A stretch of 64,000 bases of DNA, taken from an uncultured Candidatus Marinamargulisbacteria bacterium (GTDB lineage: Bacteria > Margulisbacteria > Riflemargulisbacteria > GWF2-35-9 > DYQY01). The translations under genes were made by a program, and so were the position numbers. Under the pieces are notes generated by a model. It was not told where the DNA came from. It saw only the letters and a program-made list of their open reading frames with translations, and made no database searches. The stretch covers positions 5,574-69,573 of the forward strand of contig CAZXTL010000002.1 of assembly GCA_964643725.1 (NCBI GenBank). The letters run 5' to 3'. Positions 2,567 through 64,000 of this stretch are shown here, piece after piece. Numbering within the stretch: position 1 is the first letter of the stretch; each line of letters opens with the position of its first letter.

Positions 2567-2927
2567 CCTCTGGAGCTAATGAAATTATCTTAGCAAAAGA
2601 TTTATCTCTTAACTCTCTAGCGATAGGCCCAAATATTCTTGTACCTTTTGGCAAATTTTGATTATTAATAATAACTGCAGCATTATCATCAAAACGAACT
2701 GAAGTTCCATCTTTTCTGATAATTGGTGACACAGTTCTTACAATTACTGCTTTAACTACTTCACTTCTTTTTACATTACCATCTGGCTGTGCTTTCTTAA
2801 CACAAGCTACAATGATATCGCCAACACTTGCAAACTTTCGTTTACTTCCACCTAATACTTTAATGCAAAGAATCTCTTTAGCTCCGGAATTGTCTGCAAC
2901 TACTAATCTTGTTTCTGATTGAATCAT
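2559..2927 (-). CDS. rplN: 50S ribosomal protein L14
   Basis: 122 aa; [17 protein letters not shown]… canonical L14. Confidence 0.95.
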
Positions 2928-2930
2928 AGC

Positions 2931-3206
2931 TTATGCACCCTTTCCTGTTTCTTTAGATTCTACCTTACCAATATAAAGCCATCTTTTGTCTTTACTTAAT
3001 GGTCTGACTTCTCTTATTTTGACTAAATCTCCACTTTTTGCTTCATTATTTTCGTCATGAGCTTTTACCTTCATGTTCTTTGTAATAACTTTTTCATATT
3101 TAGGATGATGTGTTCTTCTTTCAAGTTTGACAACTATAGTTTTATCCATCTTGTCACTAACAACAACACCTGTTCTTTCTTTTCTTCTATTTCTAATCTC
3201 GTCCAT
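2931..3206 (-). CDS. rpsQ: 30S ribosomal protein S17
   Basis: 91 aa; S17-like; operon position. Confidence 0.92.
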
Positions 3207-3409
3207 TATTTATCTCCCTTAACACTATTTAAAACCGTTAGGTGTGTGTTTAGTCTGGCAATATCTTTCTTTGTTTTGCTAATTGATTTTACATCCTTTA
3301 GCTGATTAGATGCTCTTTCAAATCTAAGCTTAATTAACTCAGTATTTTTTTCAGCAATCTTTTTCTCTATATCTTCTTTTTTTAATTTTTCTACTTCAAC
3401 ATACTTCAT
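3206..3409 (-). CDS. rpmC: 50S ribosomal protein L29
   Basis: ORF track gives 3206..3442, which overlaps rplP. The internal Met ([15 protein letters not shown]…) at 3409 removes the overlap and matches L29 length (~67 aa). Confidence 0.82.
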
Positions 3410-3413
3410 ATTC

Positions 3414-3833
3414 TTACCCTTCCAAATCCATTCTATAAACAAATTTTGTTTTCAAAGGAAGCTTATGTGCAGCTAGCCTCATTGCTTCTTTTGCAATATC
3501 TTCGGTTACATCGGCTATTTCAAACAAAACCTTACCTCTTTTTATTACAGCAACCCAAAACTCTGGAGAACCTTTACCTTTACCCATTCTGGTTTCAGCA
3601 GGTATCTTTGTGACGGGTTTGTCTGGAAATATTCTTATCCAAATTCTTCCGCCTCTTTTTACATATCTAGTCATAGCAATACGAGCTGCTTCAATTTGTC
3701 TGGAACTTATCCAAACATTGTCTAAAGCTTGTAATCCGTACGTGCCAAAGTCAATTTTATTGCCTTTATTTGCAGTACCTTTACGTCTTCCTCTTTGTTG
3801 CTTTCGAAACTTCTGTTTTTTTGGCATTAACAT
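3414..3833 (-). CDS. rplP: 50S ribosomal protein L16
   Basis: 139 aa; …[21 protein letters not shown]… L16 signature. Confidence 0.95.
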
Positions 3834-25486: not shown

Positions 25487-26596
25487 TTATTCCCAAACTA
25501 TATCGTAACTTACACTCCTTCCTTTACCATCATTTTGTTTTAGAATATTAATCTCAACTAAATATTGAAGCTCCCTAGTAGCAGTTGCTCTACTTATGCC
25601 TGTAATTGATGCGTATTTCTTATTAGTCATACCACCTTCAAATCCATTCTTGCCAGCATCTAAAAGTTTATTGATAACTTTTTTGTTTCTATCATTTAGT
25701 TCTAGTTGAGTGTGTTTATACCAGAAGCTAGATTTTTCTAATATGAGCGTTATTAATCCCTCTGACCTTTCAATCGATCTTGCAAAACAATCCAAAAACC
25801 AACTTATCCAAGAAGTAATATCAACGGTTCCTTTTTGTGAATTTTCTAGAATATCATAATAGTTCTTTCTGTCTGCGTTTATTTGAGACGACATGCTGTA
25901 ATACCTCATAGACTGGTTGTCATCTTGAGCTAATGCCATATCTGTTAATGCTCTGGCTATTCTGCCGTTTCCATCATCAAAAGGGTGTATTCCTACAAAC
26001 CAGAAATGAGTTATTGCAGCTCTTAATAATCCATCAAGATGATCACAACTATTTTTCCACCAATCAATAAATACTGTCATAGCTTCATCAACTTGATCTG
26101 CTGGAATGGCTTCATAATGAATTGTTTCCTTGCCATATCGTCCAGATATTACTTGCATTTGTTCATCTCTCCATTTACCAACCTTGATTTTATGCATTCC
26201 TGAATATCCAGCAGGGAAAAGGGCAGCATGCCATCCAAAAAGTCTATCTTTTGTTAACGAAGATTTATGTTTTTGGGTTGCATCCAGCAATACATCTATA
26301 AGTCCGTCAGTGTGTCGGTCAACTAAAAATCCTGCATCAGGTAATCCCAGTTTTCTGGCTATTGAAGATTTTACTGAGTCACGATTTAGGGTTTCCCCCT
26401 CGATAGCTGATGTTGTTATTGCTTCTTCAAATAAAATATCAACTTGAGCTTGCTGTTCATATTGAAACCCCATCGAGGATATTTTTGCTAATAGCTTTCC
26501 TTGCAGAAAACGACAATGACTTATTTGCTTTAAAAGAACTTTGTCATCCCATGTAAAGTTAGGCCATTCTTTGTTTTGCCATATATAATTAGTCAA
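25487..26596 (-). CDS. Fic family protein with C-terminal winged-helix domain
   Basis: 369 aa; canonical Fic motif HPFDDGNGRIARAL; C-terminal HTH-like …SITGISRATATRELQYLVE…. Confidence 0.9.
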   Translation of the reverse strand: MTNYIWQNKEWPNFTWDDKVLLKQISHCRFLQGKLLAKISSMGFQYEQQAQVDILFEEAITTSAIEGETLNRDSVKSSIARKLGLPDAGFLVDRHTDGLIDVLLDATQKHKSSLTKDRLFGWHAALFPAGYSGMHKIKVGKWRDEQMQVISGRYGKETIHYEAIPADQVDEAMTVFIDWWKNSCDHLDGLLRAAITHFWFVGIHPFDDGNGRIARALTDMALAQDDNQSMRYYSMSSQINADRKNYYDILENSQKGTVDITSWISWFLDCFARSIERSEGLITLILEKSSFWYKHTQLELNDRNKKVINKLLDAGKNGFEGGMTNKKYASITGISRATATRELQYLVEINILKQNDGKGRSVSYDIVWE

Positions 26597-47452: not shown

Positions 47453-47605
47453 ATGGGAACATGGATAATTAAGCTTCCGCTCTTACTAATTCTATTTATC
47501 TTAATTTTTCTTTTAATAGGCTGTATCAGACAAGACATAAAAGCTAAACGACCTTTTTTTCTTAAAATAACCAATAAAGATAAAGTAAATTCAGTAGAAA
47601 AATAA
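47453..47605 (+). CDS. Small (50 aa) lipoprotein-like peptide upstream of the YcaO pair
   Basis: Not in the ORF track (<60 aa). AAGGAG RBS at 47441-47446, 6 nt before ATG 47453. MGTWIIKLPLLLILFILIFLLIGCIRQDIKAKRPFFLKITNKDKVNSVEK: hydrophobic signal with LIGC lipobox and a basic 27-aa mature part. Confidence 0.45.
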   Translation: MGTWIIKLPLLLILFILIFLLIGCIRQDIKAKRPFFLKITNKDKVNSVEK

Positions 47606-47621
47606 CAAGGATACCTTTCTA

Positions 47622-49121
47622 ATGGTTGATTTTATACTCAAAGAAAATAATGATGGTCCTTTTGACTTAAAATCAACGCTAAAAACATATACATATGATC
47701 AAGATAAATACATCCATCCTCAAGTCACGTATGCAAAAACATACAGAAAAGTTAAAAGAAATGTAGAAAACGCCAAACTAATTATAATAACTGAAGAAAA
47801 GCCAGTATTTAGTTATGACTTTTCTAATGAGAAAATAACTACACATGGTAAAGGCGTAACAATGGAACAAGCCAAATCCAGTGCAATCATGGAATTTAGT
47901 GAAAGATATAGCTGGTTAAACTTTGACTATAAAAATGCTCCAGGATACATGGTAGCCTCCTTTAATGAACTGGCAGAACAAGAAGACATGTCATACATAG
48001 AACCTGGATTTGTTTTCCACAACTTCGAAAAATCTAAAGACTTTGAAGTTCACATAAAATCAATCCCCATAAAGTGGATAGACGGTTATTCTCTTACACA
48101 AAAAAAAACAATCAAATACCCTCTTAGTTGGATAAATTATATGCATGGCTCAAACGGTATCTGTACTGGAAACATAAAAGAAGAAGCTATTGTCCAAGGA
48201 ATATGTGAAGTTATTGAAAGAAATAATTGTAACAAATTTGTAAAAAATTATAAAAAAGAAAAGATAAATATTATCGATAACGAAAGTATTGAGCATGAAG
48301 GCTTTAAAGAAATGCTAGATTTCTTTAAAAAAGAACATACAGAGCTATATCTTCTCCATATTCCTACTGGATGTGACCTGCCAGTTATCATGGCTATTTG
48401 CATAAATGAGAAATTACAACCTCAAGTTCTTAGCCAAGGAATTGGTTATGGCTGTCATACAGACCCAGTAAAAGCTGTACTACGTGCTGTCACAGAATAT
48501 TTTCAGGCCAGAACTGGCATTATTGAGAAACAAAAAAAAGTACCATTTGACATGGCAATAGCTAAAAGTAATTCTATATTCAGCTTAGATTTAGACATAG
48601 ACTGGATTGTAAAAAACAATAAACTTATCCACATTAAAGATATAAAAAACCTTTCTTCAAATGATTTTAAAGAAGAAATTGAAACTCTTATTAATATTAC
48701 TAAACAAAGTGGGCTTGAAATTCTTATCGCAAGCAAAATGCACCCCAAACTTGAAATCCCCGTCTACCGAGTTTTTTCCCCTCAAGCAGAGCCACCAGTT
48801 AATTTATGTTCCAACTTTCATGTCCCAGAATACATAGTAGCTCAAATGTATTATGAAGCAGGAATGATTGATAAATCAGAAGAATTTATCCAAGAAAATC
48901 GTGAAAGAATATGCTGTTTTCCTTATTCGCTTTTTGATAATTTTGCTGCACCTATGTTTGGCGAAGAATTTTCAAATTTAGCAAAAAATACCATAAAAAG
49001 ATCTAAAATTAGTGCCGATCAAATTTGCAGGAAGGATTACTTATTACTCCATGTAAATGTTGCATCTGTTGGGAAAGACGCTGAAGATAATTTCAGAAGG
49101 TTTTCAAGTATTTTTAAATAA
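47622..49121 (+). CDS. ycaO: YcaO-domain protein (copy 1)
   Basis: 499 aa. YcaO ATP-binding signatures parallel E. coli YcaO: THGKGVTMEQAKSSAIMEFSERYS vs TNGKGATKKAALASALGEYFERLS, and SNGICTGNIKEEAIVQGICEVIERN vs SNGMSAGNTRNEARVQGLSEVFERY. Confidence 0.85.
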   Translation: MVDFILKENNDGPFDLKSTLKTYTYDQDKYIHPQVTYAKTYRKVKRNVENAKLIIITEEKPVFSYDFSNEKITTHGKGVTMEQAKSSAIMEFSERYSWLNFDYKNAPGYMVASFNELAEQEDMSYIEPGFVFHNFEKSKDFEVHIKSIPIKWIDGYSLTQKKTIKYPLSWINYMHGSNGICTGNIKEEAIVQGICEVIERNNCNKFVKNYKKEKINIIDNESIEHEGFKEMLDFFKKEHTELYLLHIPTGCDLPVIMAICINEKLQPQVLSQGIGYGCHTDPVKAVLRAVTEYFQARTGIIEKQKKVPFDMAIAKSNSIFSLDLDIDWIVKNNKLIHIKDIKNLSSNDFKEEIETLINITKQSGLEILIASKMHPKLEIPVYRVFSPQAEPPVNLCSNFHVPEYIVAQMYYEAGMIDKSEEFIQENRERICCFPYSLFDNFAAPMFGEEFSNLAKNTIKRSKISADQICRKDYLLLHVNVASVGKDAEDNFRRFSSIFK

Positions 49122-49141: not shown

Positions 49142-50641
49142 GTGGTTGATTTTATACTCAAAGAAAATAATGATGGTCCTTTTGATTTAAAGTCTACTCA
49201 AAAGACATACACTTATGATCAAGATAAATTCATCCACCCTCAAATCACCTATGCAAAAACTTTTAATAAAGTAAAAAGATCAATAGAAAACACAAAACTA
49301 ATTACAATTTCTGAAGAAAGACCAGTATTTAGTTATGACTTCTCAAATGGAACAATAACTTCACACGGCAAAGGGTTAACCAAAGATCAAGCTAAGTCTA
49401 GTGCAATCATGGAATTCTGTGAAAGATATAGTTGGCTAAACTTTGACTATAAAAATGCTCCTGGATATATAGTAACCTCATTTAACGAACTTGCTAAAAA
49501 CGAAAATATGTCCTACATTGAACCTTGCTTTGTTTTCCATGGATTTGAAAGATCAAAAGACTTTGAACCTCACATAAAATCTATCCCTACAAAGTGGATA
49601 GACGGTTTTTCGCTAACAAATAACAAAATAATCAAATACCCTCTTAGTTGGATAAACTATATGCAAGGATCTAACGGAATATGTACTGGCAACATAAAAG
49701 AAGAAGCCATTGTCCAGGGAATCTGTGAAGTTATTGAAAGAAATAACTGTAATAAATTTATAGGAAACTATAAAAATGAAAAAATAAATATTATCGAAAA
49801 CGAAAGTATTGAACATGAAGGTTTTATAGAAATCCTAAATTTCTTAAAGAAAGAAAAAACGGAACTTTATCTTTTACATATCCCTACAGGATGCGACATG
49901 CCTGTTGTCATGGCTTATTGCATAAACGATAATTTCGAAGCTCATCTTAGACAAGTCATAGGTTATGGCTGTCATACAGACCCTACCAAAGCTGTATTTC
50001 GTGCTGTAACCGAATATTTCCAAGCCAGAACTGGACTTATTGAAAAACAAAAAAATGTACCACTTAGGAAGGCTTTGGCTAAAGGTAATTTCCTGTTTGT
50101 CTTAGATTTAGATATAGACTGGATTGTCAAAAACAATCGACATATCCCAATTAAGGATATAAAGGATATTTCTTCCAATGATTTTAAAGAAGAAATCAAT
50201 ACTCTTATCAACATCACTAAACAATACGGGATGGAAATTCTAATTGCCAGCAAAAACCATCCCAAACTTAATATCCCAGTCTATAAAGTTTTCTCCCCTC
50301 AAGCTGAACCACCTGTTAATTTATGTGCAAATGTTCATATTCCAGAGTGGATAATAGCTCAAATGTATTACGAAGCAGGCATGATTGATAAATCAGATGA
50401 CTTTATTCAAAAAAATAGAAATAAATTTTCAAGTTTTGATAATTCTGTTTTTGATAATTTTGCTGAACCAATATTTGGCAAAACTATTTCTGATTTAGCA
50501 AAGAAAGCAATAAAAACCATAAAAATTAACGCTGACATGTTATGTAAAAAAGATTACTTATTAGTTCTTGCCGATGTTGCAGCTGTTGATAAAAATGCAG
50601 AAGAAAATATCAAAAAATTCCATAAATTTCAATCTAGATAG
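49142..50641 (+). CDS. ycaO: YcaO-domain protein (copy 2, tandem paralog; GTG start)
   Basis: 499 aa, collinear and about 70% identical to copy 1 with the same YcaO motifs; its first ~45 nt are nearly identical at the DNA level; GTG start at 49142. Confidence 0.85.
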   Translation: MVDFILKENNDGPFDLKSTQKTYTYDQDKFIHPQITYAKTFNKVKRSIENTKLITISEERPVFSYDFSNGTITSHGKGLTKDQAKSSAIMEFCERYSWLNFDYKNAPGYIVTSFNELAKNENMSYIEPCFVFHGFERSKDFEPHIKSIPTKWIDGFSLTNNKIIKYPLSWINYMQGSNGICTGNIKEEAIVQGICEVIERNNCNKFIGNYKNEKINIIENESIEHEGFIEILNFLKKEKTELYLLHIPTGCDMPVVMAYCINDNFEAHLRQVIGYGCHTDPTKAVFRAVTEYFQARTGLIEKQKNVPLRKALAKGNFLFVLDLDIDWIVKNNRHIPIKDIKDISSNDFKEEINTLINITKQYGMEILIASKNHPKLNIPVYKVFSPQAEPPVNLCANVHIPEWIIAQMYYEAGMIDKSDDFIQKNRNKFSSFDNSVFDNFAEPIFGKTISDLAKKAIKTIKINADMLCKKDYLLVLADVAAVDKNAEENIKKFHKFQSR

Positions 50642-51737
50642 ACATTCCCTTTTTATGTTTACCCTTTAACCTAGAAATCACATCACCTTGATTATAATGA
50701 TCTAATTTAATTGGATCTGGGGTATCAACAATTTCCTCCACCATATCATCCTCTTCAACTAATATTTCTTCTTTTACAAAAACAACTTCATCTGGAATCT
50801 GCTCTTCTTGTACGTTTTTAAATTTATCTACTGAATCACTAACTTTTAAAATTTGCTTTTGTATTTTCTTTAAATCTGTTTGAATTACTTTCTGTATTCT
50901 GTTCTCTTCCTTATCCATATCTAATTTAAAATTACTTGCTTCCTCAACAACCTCAGACTTTTTAGAAATAACTTCTTCTTTAAATTCTATAGAATTCAAA
51001 TTTGCATATTTCTGAACATATTTAACAGCTTGCTTAACATTAACTCCCTCCATAGAAACTAATCCTTCATCACTCATGTCTTCTAGCCATTTTTGAATAT
51101 CCTGAGGAGAATAATCAGAACTAATAAACGGTCCCAACCTTTCAGTTAGCTCTTCCATTTTACTTTCCAACTCTTGCTTCCTTACACTAAGCTTATCCAA
51201 AATCTTCTGTAGACTATTTAACCCAACCTGTTTTATTTTATTATCTAAATCATCTGCCACTTCCATTTCTTGGCTAAGCTTACTTCGATCAACTTTTGCA
51301 ACTATCGCTTTATTAGACTTAACATTGCCACCTTGAAAATGTAAAATATCTTTAGTTTCTTTCCCTGCATTTTCGGCCAAAAAAAGATAATCTCTGACCT
51401 TAACTATCTTATTACTTTGAGGATATGCTTCAATCATCCCATCTAAAACAGGTATCGGATAATATGCCAAAACATTCATAAGTTCATTCGCACTTTTTGA
51501 TTCTTGTAAAACTTTCTTAAATGCTAAAACTATTTGCTCATTAAGATAAAAAACTTTATCATCATGAAACTTTAATTTATCTTGTTTATTAATTAACTTA
51601 GCAAGTTTACCTAAAGTTTGCATTTCTTGAATAGAATACCCACGTATTCCAGAAGCAATTTTTCTTAATACAAATTCGATAGCAAAATCAAAGTTTTGTC
51701 TTTGATCAAGATTAATTAAAATCTGGTCAATATTCAC
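50634..51737 (-). CDS. Hypothetical coiled-coil/acidic protein (367 aa), last gene of the giant-protein operon
   Basis: No recognisable domain; its stop overlaps the ycaO2 stop by 8 nt (convergent); its start overlaps the stop of the upstream 524-aa gene. Confidence 0.55.
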   Translation of the reverse strand: MNIDQILINLDQRQNFDFAIEFVLRKIASGIRGYSIQEMQTLGKLAKLINKQDKLKFHDDKVFYLNEQIVLAFKKVLQESKSANELMNVLAYYPIPVLDGMIEAYPQSNKIVKVRDYLFLAENAGKETKDILHFQGGNVKSNKAIVAKVDRSKLSQEMEVADDLDNKIKQVGLNSLQKILDKLSVRKQELESKMEELTERLGPFISSDYSPQDIQKWLEDMSDEGLVSMEGVNVKQAVKYVQKYANLNSIEFKEEVISKKSEVVEEASNFKLDMDKEENRIQKVIQTDLKKIQKQILKVSDSVDKFKNVQEEQIPDEVVFVKEEILVEEDDMVEEIVDTPDPIKLDHYNQGDVISRLKGKHKKGMSI

Positions 51738-53312: not shown

Positions 53313-56300
53313 TTATTTCCTTACTCCATCAGCTTCATTAAGTCCACTTAAAATAAGCTCATTTCCGCGCTTAAGAATTGTTGTTCCTTTGCTTAATGAG
53401 CTCTCCACTCTTTCCCTTAATCTATCCCTTGTTTCCTTTGACAAATATCCAACAGCTTGACCCACCGCATCGCCTAAGGTAGGCAAAGATATTATAAGAT
53501 ACTCTAATGTACTATCATAGCTTTCCCTAAGTTTAGCTAAACCTAATCTTGCCTCATTAGAATTTTGAGCTAACTTAGCTTCATACAAAGCCAATATCTT
53601 TAGAGCTGCAACAAACTTTTCTTGAGGATCGTTATTGCTATTAATAAAACTTTCAATTAACTCCTTAACCATTACTTCACCTTTATTATTTAAAACTAAT
53701 AAACTATTTACATTTGATGAAAAAGGTTGAAACGTATCTTGTCCCCACGAACTTAACTTTAAGTATGCTGTTATATACTCCTGTAAATAACTGCTGACTT
53801 TCTCATTATCAATTAAGGCTGGGCTCTTCTCAAGTTGCCTCAGCACAGACTTAACTGCTTCATTTCTTAAGTCTTTTGACAATACCTCTATAGGCAGATT
53901 ACTTATTAACAAATCTGTACCTAAAGGCCTAATTGATGCTGTTGCTGATTCCAGAGGATTTACTCGATTGCTATTCGTTATTATTCTTCTTAAATCTGAA
54001 AAGTTTTGAAGGAATATTTGGCTAGTTGCTCCTTCTTTCACAGGCAAATTTAATCTTGAAATAACATTGGAAACTATACTTATTTGCTTTTGCTGTGACT
54101 CTTTCCTTACTGATAAAATCATTAGTGGAATAATTTCCTTGGCTACATCCTGTTCAAGTTGACCTGAAGAAATTAGCACATCAATTAATGCCAATGACTT
54201 ACTCACAACGATCTCAGAATCCAAAGATGACATCTTCTTTATTACATCACAAATATTTTTAACAAAACTACTTTTCTCTTTATCAGAAAGCTTCATGCTT
54301 ACCACGATTTGCTCTGCCAAATCAACAAACTGCTCAAGGTCTTGAATCGCTGTCTCTTGAGTAATATACCCTAGAATCACAGATCTGTTATCCTCAGAAA
54401 TTTGAGGACTTTTTAGAATATAATTTAAAATTTTCTCAGGTGACTTAAGCAAAATCAATTCTTTGATTTTCTCTTCTGGAGTACTCTGACTGCTTAATAC
54501 CTCCGCTATCTTCTGCTCTTTTCCTATAGTCATTTGTGCATTACTAATAAGGCTACTTAATGAGCTAAGTTTTTCAGAAAGAGTTTTCTTCTGAGATATA
54601 GTTAATTTTGATAAATTAACATCTTTTGATAAAGTATCAATTGTCTTTTGTAATTCATCATAGTCCAAAGACTTGCTGTCCTTAAATTTATTCAATTCAG
54701 TTTTTAAATCTGTACTAATCGATATTACTCCTAGCTTAACAATAACTTCAATATTCTCAACAATGTATCTTGTTTTATTAGTATAATTTTTATCAATTGC
54801 TTCATAAATATTATCAAGCAACTTGAGGACTCCTGAGACATTTTTTGCAATAATATCCTCAGGATTGAGTCCACCTTGTCCCTTTTCTGGGATAAAATTA
54901 TCTGACACTATATTCTCAACATTTGCTTGTATTTGTTGGTACTGATTAGCAACATTAACTGCTGGCAATTGGTTAATATTAAATTGTTCTGCTATTACTT
55001 TAATGACCTTAGTTTTCTCTAAAACATTCTCTTCATCTTTACCTATATTCAAAGAAGTAAATGGAATAGAAAGAGCCATATTTATTATCTTATTTATTTC
55101 TTTCTCACTTCTGGGTATGGGGCTATATTTAATAAGCTCAAAAATATCAGGCATCTTTTCCTTGACTGACTCTTCTTTAATTGTGTCACTAGTAACCAAT
55201 TTCTCTAATAAACCCATCGCCTTAATTAATGCCTTATCTGCCTTATCTGTTGGCACTTGAGCTACTGCAAGCAACAACTCTTCTACTATCTGGATATGAT
55301 CCATTTTCTTAGCTATATCCTCCAAAATATCCATAGCTAATATTTGGAACTCAGCTTCATCTTTAATTTTGACCCTATCTTCTTGCAACAGATAACGAAT
55401 TAGTGCCTTACTGTTCTCTCTGCTAACTATCTGATCATTGAGCACCACAGAATTCTCTGTAACATATCGGACAACAGCGATTGGATTATCTAATGCTATT
55501 AACTTTTCTAACTTATCCTTAGCAGTAATATCACCACTGAAAATGTTAGACAACTGTCCATCTTTGCTCTTTGTAAGGCTTATTGTTTCCAGAGTAGTCT
55601 TAAGTGCAACTAGTGATTCTTGTAACTGAACCTTAATCTTAGGATCTTTTTCAGCTTTACTTAATTCTTTCAAAACCTCAACAACTTCCAATAATTTATT
55701 AATACTATCCTTACTCTTCAAATCACCTTTCCCAACCTCTATTATAAGTTTATTAAGTTGAGGAGATATAGGTAGCTGTTGCTGTATTTGTTCTAAAGAT
55801 TGTACTACTTTGCTAACTGCTTGTGTCTCTTCCTTGGCAACTTGTTCAACATTCTTCTTGCTATTATCTATAAAAGGAGAGTAAAAAGCCTCAATAACTT
55901 TCTGAATATTCTCCAATGATTGCAAGGTTGTAGTCTGCGTCTTCCTCACGATTTCTGATAACATTCCAGCATCTGTCTGCTTGGCTTTTGCTACTTGAGT
56001 ATCGATACCTTTGTTATCAATATTAATATTATTAATAACAGGAATCGTCGCATTTGATGATATCGCCACCGACGCGGCTGATTGTATCGTAGGATCTTCT
56101 TGTTTATTTGTTTGAATCTCTTGTGCATTTAACTGCTCAGAATTCTTTCTAATCTCAAGTACCTTTGCGTCATCAAGTCTTGCCCCAATTGTCTGAGATA
56201 ATACCTCATTAGGTTGCATTATTGGCTGTACCCTTCCCTGAACAGGAGTGGTAGGTGACACCACTGCTGGAGCTGCATCATTTATTGTTGTATCTTCTTG

Positions 56301-59300
56301 CTTTTTGGTTTGAACATCGTTAACTTTTAACTTCTCTAGCTTCAAATTTATCTCTGGCATTTGTTGGGAAATCATCTTTATAACAGATGTTTGAGCTAGA
56401 ACTTCCTTTGACTTATTAATATTGTCTAAAATGCTTGGATCAGACAATATGGCTAACATAACATTCAAAACTTCTTGATCCTTACGAGGCTTTGGGTTTT
56501 CCTTAAGAGCTTGAACTAATTGAGGAACTTGTTTCTTAACATCATCTGCCTTAACGATATCCTCTCTAACCATCTCTTCAAGTAAGACTATCCCTTTAAC
56601 TAACATCTGCTCAGATTTATTTTTTGACATCACTATTACTGATGATAGTTCTTTTACTATCTGCTCTTTTGAGATTACGCTACCCATATCTTTAAGTGCA
56701 TCCTTTACCAATACATTAAACTCATCAACATCCTTTGGTTTAACCTTATCTTCTTGTAATACATAACTCATCAATGCCTTTCGATTATTCTCACCAAACA
56801 ATGGTTCTTTCATTACAACAGGATTTTCCTTTACATATCTAACTACTGCGATTGGATTATTTATCGAATTTAAAAGTTCTATCTTTTCCTCAGGTGGTGC
56901 TGTGCTATTAAATATCTTCGCTAAGGCTCCATCCTTACTCTTCGTAAGACTTATTGTCTCTAGAGTTGTCTTTAGTTCAGTAAGAGCTTCTTGTATCTGA
57001 ACCTTTATCTTAGGATCCTTTTCAGACTTACTTAGTTCTTTTAATACCTCTACTACTTCCAATAATTTATTCATACTATCCTTACTCTTCAAATCACCTT
57101 TACTAATCTGAGTAATAAGTTCTGAGGAGATAGGCATTTGTTGTTTTATTTGTTCGAGAGATTTCACAATCTCCTTCACTGCTTCTTTTTCTTCCTTGTC
57201 AATTTGGGCTGAATCCCTTTTGCTCTTATCTACAAATGGATCATGAAAAGAATCTATTATCTGCTGTATAGAAGCTATTGCTAGCATTGTTGAAGGCTCT
57301 GTTACTTTTGGCCCTTCCCCTGCCATTGTCTGTTTTGCTTGAGCTACAACTGGAACGCTATTAACTTTTTGTGTCTGATTATTACTAACAGGTGAAACTG
57401 TAGCTCCTTGTGCTGCTGCTCCTGCTTGAACAGTTGTATCCTCGGAAGTATCCTCTGCCAGACTTTGTACAGTTGCCTGCAACTGAGCATCATTTCTCCT
57501 GTTTTTATTTTCTGTATCCAAAGATATCTTGCCGTCCTCAAAAATAGCTTGATCCTTGTGTTCTAAATTTACTTTAGCTCCTACAACCTCAAATCCACTA
57601 GTAGCGAGTGATGATTCTGCCTTCTTCATCTGCAAGGTTGTCAGCACACTACTTTCAGCATTATTTTGCCCTTGAGTAAGAGCAATATCATCCAAAACTT
57701 TCAGACCCTCAGCAGAAAAATCTATTCGATGTGTTCTTTTGTCAGTAGGAGTCGTAAATTCTGCGGAAATATGAGCCGGACTATTAGCATTAGAGTCTTT
57801 AGTAATAACAAACTGATAATTATCAATATTAAGTTCTTTAGCAATAGCTGCCATTAAAGCAATTATTCTATCGCAATCATTTTCATCTATTTCATATTTC
57901 TCTTTACTAAATTGAGTAAGTTTATCAACAATCTTTGCACGTACTGCTTGCATGTCTACTTTTCCATCTATTATAGAAGAGGTAACAGCTTCATTAACTG
58001 CCTTTTTAGCCTCATCAGCCAATGAGCTTTGGTTAATAACAGTTACATTTTTACTTTTCAAAAATATATTTTGAACCGCAAATGTAGTTAACGCTGTTAC
58101 TATTTGATTGCGTGTTAGTGGATCTGAAGCTGCTTTAGGCCCTGCCTTGTCAACCGCTCCAGGAACAACCTTAGTCTTAGCTATATCTCCAAACGCCTCT
58201 CTAATTGGTCCTTGGAGTGCCTCTCTCACTTGCGAAATAGAAAGGGCTGAACCTAAAACATCCAATGCCTGATTTATTACTGCTTGAAGCGCTACAGTTG
58301 GGTTACTGTTTATCCCTGCATTAATAGCTGAAAATCCAGAATTGCCAGCCCCGGATGACGTGCCCGCTTGTACTCCTTGTAAAACCTCATAGACCTTTGC
58401 TCTTTGCGAAATAGCATCGCTAATAAGTTTTTTAAGTAACATACTAGTTATTTCTGAATTAAATGACTTAAGTTTATCTTGAGCATCAAAAATGCCTGGT
58501 TCCTCTTTACCTGCGACAGAATCTATCTTTTGGTTAACGTCCTTTGGTGTTGCATTTGGTGCTGCATTTGGTGCTGCGTTTGGTGCTGCATTTGCTACTG
58601 CGTCTGTTACCGCTGGCGCTGCATTTGCTACTGCATCTGTTACCGCTGGCGCTGCTGTTGCGACTGCATCTGTTACCGCTGGTGCTGCATTTGCCACTGC
58701 TTCTGTTACTGCTGGTGCTGCTGTTGCGGTTGCGTCTGCTACTGCTGGTGCTGCTGTTGATAAAGCATCTGTTACTGCTACAGCTGCTGTTGCGACAGCG
58801 TTTCCTACTGTTACTGCGACATCTGCTAGCGCGCCTAGAATCCCGCCACCTCCTCCAGATGTTGCTGGTGCTGCTTTTGCTGGTGCTGGTGCAGATTGCG
58901 CTGCTGGTTTTGTTTCTGCTTTTGTTTCTGGTTTTGCGGCTGTTGCTTGTGCTTTATCCACAGATGTTGCTGATTGACCTTTAGTGCTCGGATCGTTGTA
59001 CTTTGCCTTTGCAATATCTATAAGAGCAGCTAAAACTAAATTCGCCATACTATCAAACATCGTTTTCATTCTCTCTGACATTTGTAAGGCAAAAGCAGAA
59101 TCTTCACTTGCAGCAGCATTACTTTGTATCTTACGTGATAAAGCATCACCAGAATTACCTGTACCAAAAGCCTTCTCGGCTTTAGCTTCCGCGTTAGCTC
59201 TAAATTCTTCTCTCGCTTTTTTCTCTACATAATAAGTCAAATATTCTTTTATTAAGTTTCTTATTAGATTCATTAAAATACTTGTTACTTTGGTACTTAA

Positions 59301-62300
59301 CCCATCACCACCGCCTCCATAGCCAGTTGTTAACGCAAGAAGGGCCCGAAGCACCTTGGCTGTCGCACTCATATCAGGGCTGTCTCCATCGCCAGTAAGT
59401 GCATTGTTTGACATAGCATCACCAATTTGTATTATGGCTCCTGCTATCGAAAGAACTGAGAAAATCATCGTAATCATTGCCGCTGCTTGTGCTGCAGCAA
59501 GATTCTCTTGTGCTGTAACCACTTTATTCCATGCAGACACTTGAATCTTGGCAAGAGCCACTGCTAATTGAAGAGCTATCTGCATTGCGCTTGCTTGATA
59601 CCCTACTATTGCTTGTGTCTTTTGAAAGTTTTCAACTGTTGAAGGTGTTCTAAACATCATACTCATTACAGCTTGCTTTGCATCTGCTGCTGCCTGAGCT
59701 ATAGCAATCTGAGCAGCCCAAGTTCTCTCCCAATTCTTAATTGCTCTCTGAGCAGCAAGCGCAGCAGAAGGGTCGTAAGTGACCCGTCCACCAGAAGAAG
59801 AAATTATCATCCCACTGCCCGCATGATTAACAATATCAAAGGCAGAACTAGTCAAAGCACTATTAGTGCCAGAACTTTCAAGTTCATCAAAATTAAGTCC
59901 AAACATTTTCGAATAAGCTTCTTTCATCCTAGCTATTGCTGTTTCTTTGTCTTCTATTTGCGCCTGACTTTGAAAAATAGAAACAAGAGCATTAGCTATC
60001 GTTACTAACCCAGCCAATATGTTAGCAATCGTCATTAATGTCGAAAGAGGTTCTGCTATTGCTTTAAGACATGAAGCAACAATGGATAAAACAGCTATTC
60101 CAATACTAATCCAACCGTACATATTGGCTGTATTCATAGCATCTCTCGCGGCGGCTATATCTAACTGTGCATCAAGTAGAATCTTATCTATTTGCATTTG
60201 AAGCTGCTTCCTTTGCGCCTCTAGCCCCCTCATGGTCATAACATAGGAACCAAAAGCCTGAAAACCAGCCATAACAAATTTCGACTGACTGCCAGTATTA
60301 ACACCAAATAAAACGGTAATAATAATTGTTCGTGCATCCATCATGGCAGAGGATATCGCTAATACTGCAAACATCTGAGCAAGGAAAGCAGTTGAAGTAT
60401 TTTCGTTACCATTTAAGGCACCAGTCATCGCACTATTGAGTCCCTGAAAAAGGACACTCATGTTACCGTCTTCTGTCTCTATTCCACTATATAACCAATC
60501 AGGAATATTAAAAGAAGGACCAACAGAAAATTTATCCTTATAATCCTCATATAATTTTTTAGCAAATTCATACGCATCCTTAGCTTCTGCCATAGATTGC
60601 ATAGCTGCATAAATAGACCAAAGGGCACCTAATATCCCAATAATCACTCCTGCAACACTACATAAAGCAGCTAGCGAAACACAAGTGACAATGGTATTAA
60701 TTATTACCCTTGCCATCTGTCCTTCTATGGCACTAATTTGCTGTTTGATACTCTTTAATTGCATTTCGACCTGTAATTTTCTATTGTATTCACTGGCTTT
60801 TGCATACAACATTGTAGAATTGTAATCAAAGGCAGAACTTATACTTGAAAAAGTACCAGTAACCCATGACTGTAATGCCTGCATCATATCTACTTTCGTC
60901 TGAACATTAAAAAGCACCTGCATCACAGCACTTCTGGCATCTGCCATAGAATCAACAATTGCAAGCATACTTAAAAGCATAATCTGAAAAGCCATTATCT
61001 TGGCATTAATGTCATTTATCTGACCAGTAGCACTCATGCCCGAAAGAAGTCCCCAAGCTTGAGCCACAATATTATTCATCTGGTTACCAAAGTTAATGGA
61101 CATATCCGTAGTGGTAAGTATTTCTCCTACTTCATTCCCACCTTCCTCATACTCATCATTTAACCAACTTAATTTTAATAGGTTATACTCTAAAGAAATA
61201 TCATTCTCTAGATTTTCCTCCATTTGCTCTAAAATACTTTTCGTATAAGCCAGTTGAACATATGAATAAACACCTAACATTACTGCACCAATAATGGCAC
61301 CAGCAATAAGTAAGGATCCTCCTCCTGTAAAAACTGCTAATACAACACAAACAATCAAAAGAATTACTGCAAAAATCATAAAAAAGAATGACCCAAAAAA
61401 CCCAGGTCCGTCTTTGACTTTATCCCATACCTTTACTGCATCTTCATAGCTCTTTCTGGCTAATTTAATATTCTCTAAATTAGTTACTTCTTGTTTTAAA
61501 AAATTAGAATACCTTGATATCCATTGTTTCTCTGCACCTCTTACTGCAGAGGCAATTTGTGCAATACCTGCTCTGTCGTCATTCCAAGAATTTATTCCAA
61601 ATAATATCTTAAGAATCATGCTGGAGATATCCATGGTTGTTTCCATTAATACATAACCAGTCTGTTCAACCATGACCATATCATCGAACCTAGCAGATAC
61701 CTGTAGGTTATTATCAACATTGGCGCCACCAAGAACTGCCTGCCAAATATTAGCTGTTTCCCAAGAATTGGACATTCCAGATAATTTTTGCATGGCTGCT
61801 CTACAAGATGATATTAATAAATTATTAACATTATTATTTTGCTCTGCAAGCAACAAATTACCATGCGAAATTAACACGTTTTCATAAGCAGCTCGCTTTT
61901 TACTATCTACTTTCTTTGCACATTCTTTAGCTATTCTCTCTACTTCTGCAATATTTAACTCATATGCTTCTGAGTTATTTTCCATTGCATCTTCTAATGC
62001 GTTAGTAATAAGACCATCTAAATTACTTATTTCGCTAGAATACTTATCAGATATCCTTTGCGCTGATAGAACTTTAACATTTTCATATTTATACCCAAAC
62101 AGAAACTGAATCATCATATTCTTAACGTCTAACAATTCATTAAAAAGAATAACGCAAGCCATCATAATATAGATTTGAATTTTGATCCCAATAAACTCAT
62201 CTACCATCCCTTCAAAATCAACACCAGTAAAAGGAACCCAATTCCCCGCCGCAAAAGCTGCTGTCTCTTCTGTTACACCAGAAAGATCAACTGGAATCTC

Positions 62301-64000: not shown

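Follow-up and report, generated by a model that had tools for sequence, protein, structure and literature searches.

A giant protein with a transglutaminase-like domain and predicted membrane hairpins heads a conserved three-gene operon of Margulisbacteria

A three-gene operon of ~13.4 kb in total lies at one end of a 64,000-nucleotide (nt) stretch of contig CAZXTL010000002.1 (hereafter the window) from an uncultured Candidatus Marinamargulisbacteria bacterium. Its first gene encodes a giant protein, and the two genes that follow encode partner proteins of 524 and 367 amino acids (aa). In the reading that we favor, with a probability of about 0.4, the giant protein is a scaffold or tether at the cytoplasmic face of the membrane, which is anchored by hydrophobic hairpins, carries a LapG-like cysteine protease domain beside a dead copy, and has two soluble partners. 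We infer the enzymatic activity, the partner binding, the topology, and the scaffold role from the features described below. Residue numbers follow the window translation, in which residue 1 is the first codon at the window edge.

The minus-strand frame that stops at 53313-53315 runs open for 3,561 codons to the window edge, and the translation of 53313-63998 has no internal stop. The TTG at 63584, which the ORF finder takes as the start, is merely the first possible start within the window and lies inside the gene. The homologue P0011 is 64% identical to the window protein, and the alignment begins at the first window codon (residue 1 corresponds to residue 113 of P0011). Residue 1 aligns to residue 111-113 of complete close relatives, and the start is defined in the related loci L093, L014, and L015. 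The N-terminus of the close relatives reads MEIQQN.EV.N.QGIGIDGLAGAG. The start methionine of L093 is preceded, five codons upstream, by an in-frame stop, beyond which lies a divergent YcaO gene. Because the N-termini of complete homologues extend ~112 residues past the first residue of the window, about 112 codons are probably missing beyond the edge, and the full protein would have ~3,670 residues, slightly above 3,561. The translation and the homologue alignment are thus in accordance with a preliminary description of this DNA, in which the frame was open from 53313 to the edge, the TTG was internal, and the protein was larger than 3.5 k aa. An exact-match search with the last bases of the window found no match in genome and metagenome collections, and the contigs retrieved through the partner proteins were all shorter.

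The giant open reading frame (ORF) is not an assembly artefact, since independent assemblies carry it intact. The independent JGI assembly L001 matches window 41737-61994 with 99.91% identity and zero indels, the repeat region included, and four Logan/JGI contigs are identical across the 3′ end. The guanine-cytosine (GC) content of the window is ~33% and genome-like except in an Ala-rich stretch. Intact collinear ORFs of 2,797-4,311 aa occur in relatives, with 24-64% identity across lineages. A misassembled or decaying ORF, or mobile DNA encoding a phage tape-measure or conjugation protein, is effectively refuted by these results, although misassembly can yield low-complexity repeats and extreme length, and helices, hydrophobic segments, and hydrolase domains occur together in tape-measure proteins too. 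In particular, a tape-measure protein is rejected on the basis that the giant protein has no PHROG match and that the neighborhood is housekeeping. All 18 mismatches between the window and L001 fall within 200 nt (window 61669-61868, L001 127-326) beside the end of the L001 contig. Ten of them alter the amino acid, at positions in residues 711-777, between the modules R0 and R1 (Table 1). The cluster is probably strain microdiversity or a chimeric contig end.

In the N-terminal part, Pfam PF01841 (Transglut_core) matches residues 367-442 with 48.7 bits (E 1e-12; cut-off 23), and it is also above threshold in the homologues P0011, P0012, P0014, and P0016. The active motifs of this domain, T2, are GDCEDL, AGHVVAGY, and ISLDLT, which contain residues Cys416, His451, and Asp467, respectively. 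GDCEDL, GH.V, and the Asp are invariant in all family members, even at 23-28% overall identity, and T2 is followed by a conserved tail, FSFN...VFEDP..SMYTA. Because Transglut_core is above threshold and the motifs are invariant in distant members, the T2 enzyme looks functional. The preceding domain, T1, is a degenerate copy, of which residues 172-300 align to residues 343-469 with 36% identity (E 1e-23, self-BLAST). In T1, Ser247 replaces the catalytic Cys, Gln282 replaces the His, and Asp298 is retained. T1 is recognizable only in the closest relatives P0010 and P0011 and is largely degenerate in L006/L014; the distant members are single-domain. The Pfam match and the residue alignment agree with the tandem that had been proposed, an active transglutaminase-like domain (GDCED…AGHVVAGY) and a second copy without Cys and His. 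As far as sequence comparison tells, the transglutaminase-like superfamily is the sole known-family membership that holds for the giant protein.

The solved structure nearest to T2 by sequence is LapG 4fgo (E 0.006 with a single sequence, 3.5e-5 with a family profile). LapG and its relatives (BTLCP, PF06035, MEROPS C93; 4fgo, 4u65) resemble T2 in the fold family, in the Cys-His-Asp order, and in the GDCED around the catalytic Cys. LapG differs in that it is a ~220-aa periplasmic protein with a Sec signal, which cleaves the adhesin LapA at a di-alanine site and is controlled by LapD, whereas T2 lies about 450 residues into a ~3,670-aa chain without a signal peptide. The LapG-family profiles are below threshold on T2 (PF06035, 13.6 bits with a cut-off of 27; NF045674, 12.3 bits with a cut-off of 320). 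LapD, LapA, and type I secretion genes are absent from the neighborhoods seen, whole genomes not having been searched. Outside Margulisbacteria, the matches to the T2 domain are small proteins of 218-635 aa, and one of them, a gammaproteobacterial protein of 243 aa, proved on checking to be a true LapG homologue (E 5e-27 to 4fgo).

The T2 domain is followed by five tandem helical modules, R0-R4, and iterated hidden Markov model (HMM) searches find 4-5 module copies per large family member. Every R module contains a conserved motif helix (..A.xDAR..V..VLFGV.T) and a long helix, and in R1-R3 these are followed by a ~45-residue hydrophobic helix-turn-helix hairpin (H1-H3, respectively) with a turn of 4-6 residues. 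The preliminary description had reported a long stretch of paired hydrophobic helices; the helix pairs are present, but they are parts of larger units, the five tandem ~200-aa modules. H1 and H2 are strongly hydrophobic in all members, and H3 is strongly so only in close relatives. A fourth hydrophobic segment, H4, is located at about residues 1503-1525. Lys and Arg are absent from all four hairpin turns (H1-H4), as compared with 14 in 120 flanking residues. The seven complete homologue N-termini (P0011, L093, L014, L015, P0012, P0014, and P0016) are hydrophilic, and none of them has a signal peptide.

Because the conserved transmembrane elements are tight hairpins, the conserved spans would be paired and even in number, and the two termini would face the same side. 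The cytoplasmic side is the simplest, given the paired spans and the lack of a signal peptide. The protease end and the 2,000-residue tail are thus predicted to face the cytoplasm, and the hairpin turns to touch the periplasm. This arrangement, as predicted, argues against a Sec-exported surface protein.

H4 bears on the possibility of a cell-surface fiber, in which H4 or another odd span would serve as a signal anchor, the spacer would cross the periplasm, and the 2,000-residue helical tail would be displayed as an adhesin or as a surface for interaction. In the window, H4 has a single clear hydrophobic helix, and the Asp-rich loop after it is free of K/R. In addition, Ala/Pro-rich spacers often span the periplasm, and the tail is the fastest-evolving part of the protein and is built of duplicated modules. 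However, H4 is non-hydrophobic in P0012, P0014, and P0016 and weakly hydrophobic in L014, and the loop after it contains Lys-rich inserts in P0011 and L014. There is no evident route across an outer membrane, neither beta-rich adhesin repeats nor a sorting signal or known binding domain is found in the tail, and both partners are of cytoplasmic type. We therefore consider a surface fiber improbable.

The hairpin modules are connected to the C-terminal half through a low-complexity spacer. The spacer contains about six copies of AAPAVTDAVAN (period of 33 nt, or 11 aa) and then four of NAAP (nt 58543-58936), and it cannot be aligned between homologues. The local GC content rises to 0.43, compared with about 0.33 elsewhere, because of the Ala/Pro/Thr-rich composition. 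The middle region is 35-37% identical to those of P0011 and L015. In the tail, C1 and C2 are 40-58% identical (self-BLAST, which delimits the duplicated modules at residues 2161-2615 and 2611-3060), and a divergent third copy, C3, is recognized at residues 3066-3313. By HMM, close relatives have three C-module copies and P0012 has two. The Ala-rich tandem repeats and the two duplicated helical modules of the preliminary description are thus present, but the repeat period is 11 aa rather than 12, and a third, divergent module copy is added. The giant protein is poor in Cys, with 13 in 3,561 residues.

Table 1 Features of the operon in the window.
Feature	Residues	Window positions	Strand	Basis or remark
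Giant ORF	3,561 codons + stop	53313..64000	-	5′ end cut by the window edge
Acidic conserved N-terminal region	1-165	63504..63998	-	Alignment of N-termini; net charge -26; continues upstream of the window
Degenerate transglutaminase-fold domain T1	166-335	62994..63503	-	Self-BLAST to T2, alignment
Intact transglutaminase-fold (papain-like) domain T2	336-520	62439..62993	-	Pfam PF01841
T2 triad codons	Cys416; His451; Asp467	62751-62753; 62646-62648; 62598-62600	-	
Five tandem ~200-aa helical modules R0-R4	R0 598-704; R1 782-937; R2 976-1173; R3 1179-1397; R4 1415-1525	59424..62207	-	Self-BLAST, iterated HMM, module alignment
Hairpin H1	866-915 (turn TGGGS)	61254..61403	-	Hydropathy 3.4; conserved in distant homologues
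Hairpin H2	1097-1140	60579..60710	-	Hydropathy; conserved in distant homologues
Hairpin H3	1293-1345 (turn AEPLST)	59964..60122	-	Hydropathy; amphipathic, not hydrophobic, in distant homologues
Ala/Pro/Thr-rich low-complexity spacer	1561-1830	58509..59318	-	Tandem Repeats Finder
Middle region	1831-2160	57519..58508	-	No Pfam or PDB match
Three Lys/Glu/Ile/Leu-rich C-terminal modules C1-C3	C1 2161-2610; C2 2611-3060; C3 (divergent) 3061-3561	53316..57518	-	Self-BLAST, HMM
Partner gene 1	524 aa	51737..53311	-	Acidic (isoelectric point (pI) 4.6); lacks a signal peptide and transmembrane segments
Partner gene 2	367 aa	50634..51737	-	Acidic; no signal peptide or transmembrane segment; basic C-terminal tail

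The two partner genes follow the giant gene directly. One nucleotide separates the stop of the giant gene from the ATG of the 524-aa gene, the stop of the 524-aa gene and the GTG of the 367-aa gene overlap by 1 nt, and GGAG-type ribosome-binding sites are located within the preceding genes. To judge from this arrangement, the 524-aa and 367-aa genes are translationally coupled. Neither protein has a Pfam or NCBIfam match, PDB-sequence profile searches are null as well, and none of nine homologues of the 524-aa protein has a Pfam match. The 1-nt junctions and these nulls confirm that the two genes are tightly coupled and encode no recognizable domains, as had been claimed. In profile-profile comparison, the partner proteins are unrelated to each other and to the C-modules. 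A short, seemingly shared YxxExIxKWLxDMS-like motif was dropped as it is not upheld across homologues. Members of the 367-aa family share an invariant basic tail at the C-terminus, HYNQ.DV.S.LK.KHKKGMSI (window 50634-50700), which is kept down to 23% overall identity. This short peptide may serve in binding or in membrane contact.

When 1.84 billion representative proteins were searched exhaustively with HMMER, residues 501-1600 matched only nine of them. The large ones are P0011 (2,373 aa, partial), P0012 (4,258 aa), P0014 (2,797 aa), and P0016 (4,311 aa). All four align collinearly with the window protein and carry the transglutaminase domain around residue 300-400. In a word-indexed search, the N-terminal 600 aa gave no match, and residues 501-1600 gave P0010 alone among the matches listed. 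The source-named homologues all belong to Candidatus Margulisbacteria/Margulisiibacteriota, including Riflemargulisbacteria. Full-length relatives were restricted to Margulisbacteria in a scan of 185,579 species-representative genomes. The same scan revealed further giant ORFs in Termititenax aidoneus, Termititenax persephonae, and other Margulisiibacteriota, which are longer than 3,600 aa and have the transglutaminase region in common with the family.

Homologues of both partners follow the giant gene in every locus read, with 21-46% identity, and the proteins of the three-gene unit are about 21-53% identical between loci. The loci include L006/L014, from a metagenome-assembled genome (MAG) labelled Marinamargulisbacteria with a giant protein of 3,523 aa, L009/L015, labelled Termititenax sp. 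and from a sulfidic cave, and L011 and L012. The synteny of the three genes is thus kept across distant relatives. Around the operon, related loci carry aconitase-type, Bax1-I, ComEC, and NusA genes, and the recurring surroundings comprise an aconitase-type pair, Bax1-I, a 49-51-aa ORF, alpha-amylase, and YcaO. In the window, the genes 20-30 kb from the operon include purine biosynthesis genes, TruB, and RibF. The same surroundings recur in relatives, which speaks for vertical inheritance at a mostly syntenic core locus rather than a mobile one, and the operon is, on sequence evidence, Margulisbacteria-specific. The preliminary description had linked the locus to host- or episymbiont-associated bacteria with reduced genomes. 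This link is not sustained: the operon has housekeeping neighbors and, as it is found in MAGs that bear the labels Riflemargulisbacteria, Marinamargulisbacteria, and Termititenax, is not tied to one symbiotic lineage.

Some relatives depart from the common layout. The homologue P0010, from Riflemargulisbacteria MAG ELA174, has an in-frame TAA in R4 (L010 4725-4727), opposite ...ADAKQAV... of the window protein, and the ORF resumes after it as a separately called 505-aa gene; for this stop, a sequencing error, a pseudogene, and a naturally split gene are all conceivable. P0016, the most divergent full-length homologue, has ~1,750 extra residues (residues 526-2280) between the transglutaminase domain and the hairpin modules, and its locus has an extra 481-aa gene between the giant gene and the two partners. 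Long ORFs, open for 1,900-3,700 aa and in several cases cut by the end of the locus, are located at L016 8191-19329, L017 9452-20485, L019 8092-13869, L023, and L032 9626-20479. These ORFs, among them ones from a single-cell genome, Termititenax aidoneus, and Termititenax persephonae, share the N-terminal transglutaminase region only, and they lie in other surroundings, downstream of PRPP synthetase, TIM, SerRS, or GatAB. Either strong divergence of orthologues or a second giant family of paralogues could account for them.

In the scaffold reading, the tight hydrophobic hairpins, two in all members and three here, would anchor the giant protein in the cytoplasmic membrane. The protein would be a scaffold or tether bound to the membrane, and the two soluble acidic partners, which are co-translated, would assemble with it. 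The intact T2 domain would be a membrane-proximal cysteine protease, or less likely a cross-linker, acting on a partner or on the giant protein itself, and the dead T1 copy would be a binding or regulatory module. The flexible Ala/Pro-rich spacer would link the hairpin modules to the three ~450-aa tail modules.

If T2 is a protease, the giant protein could also be a self-processing polyprotein, in which T2 would cut the giant precursor, for example in the Ala-rich spacer, into membrane and soluble products, in either location. The combination of a protease domain, a very long chain of many modules, and a low-complexity spacer would suit such processing. Moreover, the in-frame stop and continuing ORF of P0010 suggest that split products may be tolerated, and the separate 481-aa gene of the P0016 locus points in the same direction. 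However, LapG-type [T/A/P]-A-A-[G/V] sites are neither enriched nor conserved (0-2 per protein, with about 1 expected), and we regard self-processing as quite improbable.

Several points weigh against a cytoplasmic-face scaffold. The topology is read from hydropathy and the positive-inside rule, not from a dedicated predictor. AlphaFold gives the scaffold no fold support, with a predicted local distance difference test (pLDDT) score of 54.7 for the 524-aa partner (9-sequence alignment) and 48.6 for module R2 (18-sequence module alignment). LapG is periplasmic, and the Asp and Glu that flank its catalytic Cys presumably bind calcium; the same DCED motif is found in T2 and would fit an extracytoplasmic enzyme better. 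The giant protein also has traits reminiscent of type I secretion substrates, being very acidic (pI 4-5.6), poor in Cys, and huge, and having no N-terminal signal. Its C-terminal half evolves faster (31% identity, compared with 46-53%), a pattern also seen in exposed proteins. Finally, single modules give sub-threshold Pfam matches to secreted proteins that insert in membranes, namely SseC (PF04888; 24 bits for R1 of P0014 and 16.9 bits for R1 of the window, cut-off 30.2) and HlyE.

These points bear on the main rival, an exported membrane-inserting protein, which we consider possible but somewhat unlikely. Such a protein would leave by a non-Sec route (type I-like or other) and carry modules like those of alpha-pore-forming toxins or type III translocators. 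Each module would be a helical stalk whose hydrophobic hairpin is shielded in solution and inserts in the membrane of another cell, the LapG-like domain would be extracytoplasmic, and the partners would be chaperones or export adaptors in the cytoplasm. Besides the DCED-bearing LapG-like domain, the acidic, Cys-poor composition, the faster-evolving tail, and the sub-threshold single-module matches to SseC, HlyE, RTX-N, and holin, export would be consistent with strong hydrophobic hairpins in a protein that has no signal peptide and with the amphipathic character of some hairpins in distant homologues, which would suit hairpins buried in a bundle. The low-confidence AlphaFold secondary structure is a long helical hairpin with a hydrophobic turn at its tip, and export might be directed by the conserved N-terminal motif. 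Attachment to other cells, which occurs in some Margulisbacteria, also favors export.

On the other side, the SseC/HlyE-type matches are not only below threshold but disappear in scans of longer slices. In the related loci examined, the operon has no secretion or transporter genes next to it, and the scan of the window itself covered the genes at 23-34 kb only, which are housekeeping. There is no immunity-like gene, toxin domain, or polymorphic C-terminus, and there are no RTX repeats. The gene is present as one syntenic copy among housekeeping genes in three labelled lineages, with one MAG from an experimental-lake study, which is atypical for toxins or effectors. For the same kind of reasons, the cell-surface or interaction system proposed in the preliminary description is not supported: the N-termini are hydrophilic and without a signal, the predicted membrane spans are paired, and adhesin repeats, sorting signals, and adjoining secretion genes were not found.

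Comparison with known systems provides partial likenesses only. In Pfam, NCBIfam, PHROGs, PADLOC, and PDB-sequence profiles, the parts other than the transglutaminase domains (the membrane region, the middle region, the C-modules, and the partners) are unmatched, and we found no description of the giant-protein family in the literature. These nulls agree with the earlier suggestion that the family and its system are undescribed. In a Foldseek search, the low-confidence R2 model retrieved generic helical hairpins alone, all with E above 1, which we discarded. A PADLOC defense system is rejected, as the giant and 367-aa proteins have no match and the 524-aa protein has only a 13.6-bit, chance-level pAgo match. 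An LXG/type VII-like N-terminus is likewise rejected, as the full-length homologues have no such Pfam domain.

Pseudomonas aeruginosa TgpA, a membrane-anchored transglutaminase-like protein of about 670 aa, has its transmembrane helices at the N-terminus, and its periplasmic domain lies between DUF3488 and DUF4129. The giant protein resembles TgpA in having Transglut_core and transmembrane helices in one polypeptide, but lacks DUF3488 and DUF4129 (Pfam) and has the reverse order, the enzyme first and then the hairpins. The type III translocators SseC/YopB/IpaB/EspD (PF04888) and the ClyA/HlyE toxins share with it long helices that run into and out of a ~45-residue hydrophobic hairpin, on which the weak profile matches are located. 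However, they are 300-600 aa long with one hairpin unit, whereas the giant protein has five tandem units, and there are no type III secretion genes nearby in the loci examined. Chlamydial Inc proteins also have a bilobed hydrophobic hairpin with a very short turn and coiled-coil-like flanks on one side of the membrane. They differ in being small type III-secreted effectors of intracellular bacteria and have no sequence kinship with the giant family, a chromosomal core family that is spread across the phylum.

Giant RTX/LapA-like adhesins and the giant proteins of West-Roberts et al. are, like the protein described here, very large, acidic, poor in Cys, and without an N-terminal signal. In contrast to RTX/LapA adhesins, the assessable parts of the giant protein are helical, as judged from composition and from a low-confidence model of one module, and carry membrane hairpins. 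Pfam, NCBIfam, and motif scans of the giant protein found no Ig-like, beta, or adhesin repeats, RTX nonapeptides (GGxGxDxUx), or type IX secretion system (T9SS), PEP-CTERM, or LPXTG signals. The survey of West-Roberts et al. (bioRxiv 10.1101/2023.11.21.568195) lists Margulisbacteria among the phyla with many very large genes. As the word 'transglutaminase' has 0 occurrences in the main text of that survey, the survey does not appear to describe the giant-protein family.

Giant proteins without an assigned function are not rare in metagenomes. Here, a protein of ~3,670 residues and two partners are kept intact across several lineages, which points to an important role, and only one of roughly twelve modules resembles anything known. 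Margulisbacteria are the uncultured sister group of Cyanobacteria, and to our knowledge almost nothing has been established about their cell biology. It is unlikely, though worth stating as a working idea, that the operon encodes a Margulisbacteria-specific cell-biological machine, which would be anchored in the inner membrane, have its own LapG-like protease and two partners, and act in membrane or envelope organization or in cell-cell contact via tandem helical-hairpin modules of a new class. If the protein is exported instead, it would be a new type of membrane-inserting protein. The tandem hairpin module and the natural enzyme/pseudo-enzyme pair offer themselves for structural study, and the family is a target for metaproteomics, for cryo-electron tomography of Termititenax, and for biochemistry of the protease domain.

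YcaO genes flank the operon in the window and in several relatives. In the window, two tandem YcaO paralogues (47622-49121 and 49142-50641, plus strand; 76% protein and 81% DNA identity) point toward the 367-aa gene, with an overlap of 8 bp at its end. In four relatives, a divergent YcaO gene is located immediately upstream of the giant gene (L011 8322-9833, L014 7081-8730, L015 4318-5901, and L093 6688-8268). The upstream YcaOs of L093, L014, and L015 are mutually orthologous (54-64%) and 32-35% identical to the window pair, and that of L011 is 36-37% identical to these three and about 41% to the window pair. The recurrent flanking is open to two explanations, a functional link or plain synteny, and the YcaO proteins might modify the giant protein post-translationally.

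Directly upstream of the YcaO pair, a 50-aa ORF (window 47453-47605, plus strand) has a hydrophobic N-terminus and a lipobox-like LIGC motif. ORFs of 42-51 aa are found at the same position in L006, L009, L011, and the P0016 locus, without an adjacent YcaO. We rejected the 50-aa ORF as a YcaO peptide precursor, as it looks like a small lipoprotein and is conserved where no YcaO adjoins.

In distant relatives (L011 25387-28611 and the P0016 locus), a minus-strand cluster that is absent from the window lies between the operon and Bax1-I. It comprises the 49-51-aa ORF, a 71-aa ORF, a ~265-aa gene (with HATPase_c in L011), and genes for MotB/OmpA-like, MotA/ExbB-like, and cNMP-binding proteins. 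In L011, the aconitase pair is also located between the operon and Bax1-I. Elsewhere in the window, a minus-strand gene at 25487-26596, among purine-biosynthesis and housekeeping genes, encodes a Fic/DOC-family protein with an N-terminal DUF4172 and a weak C-terminal helix-turn-helix match.

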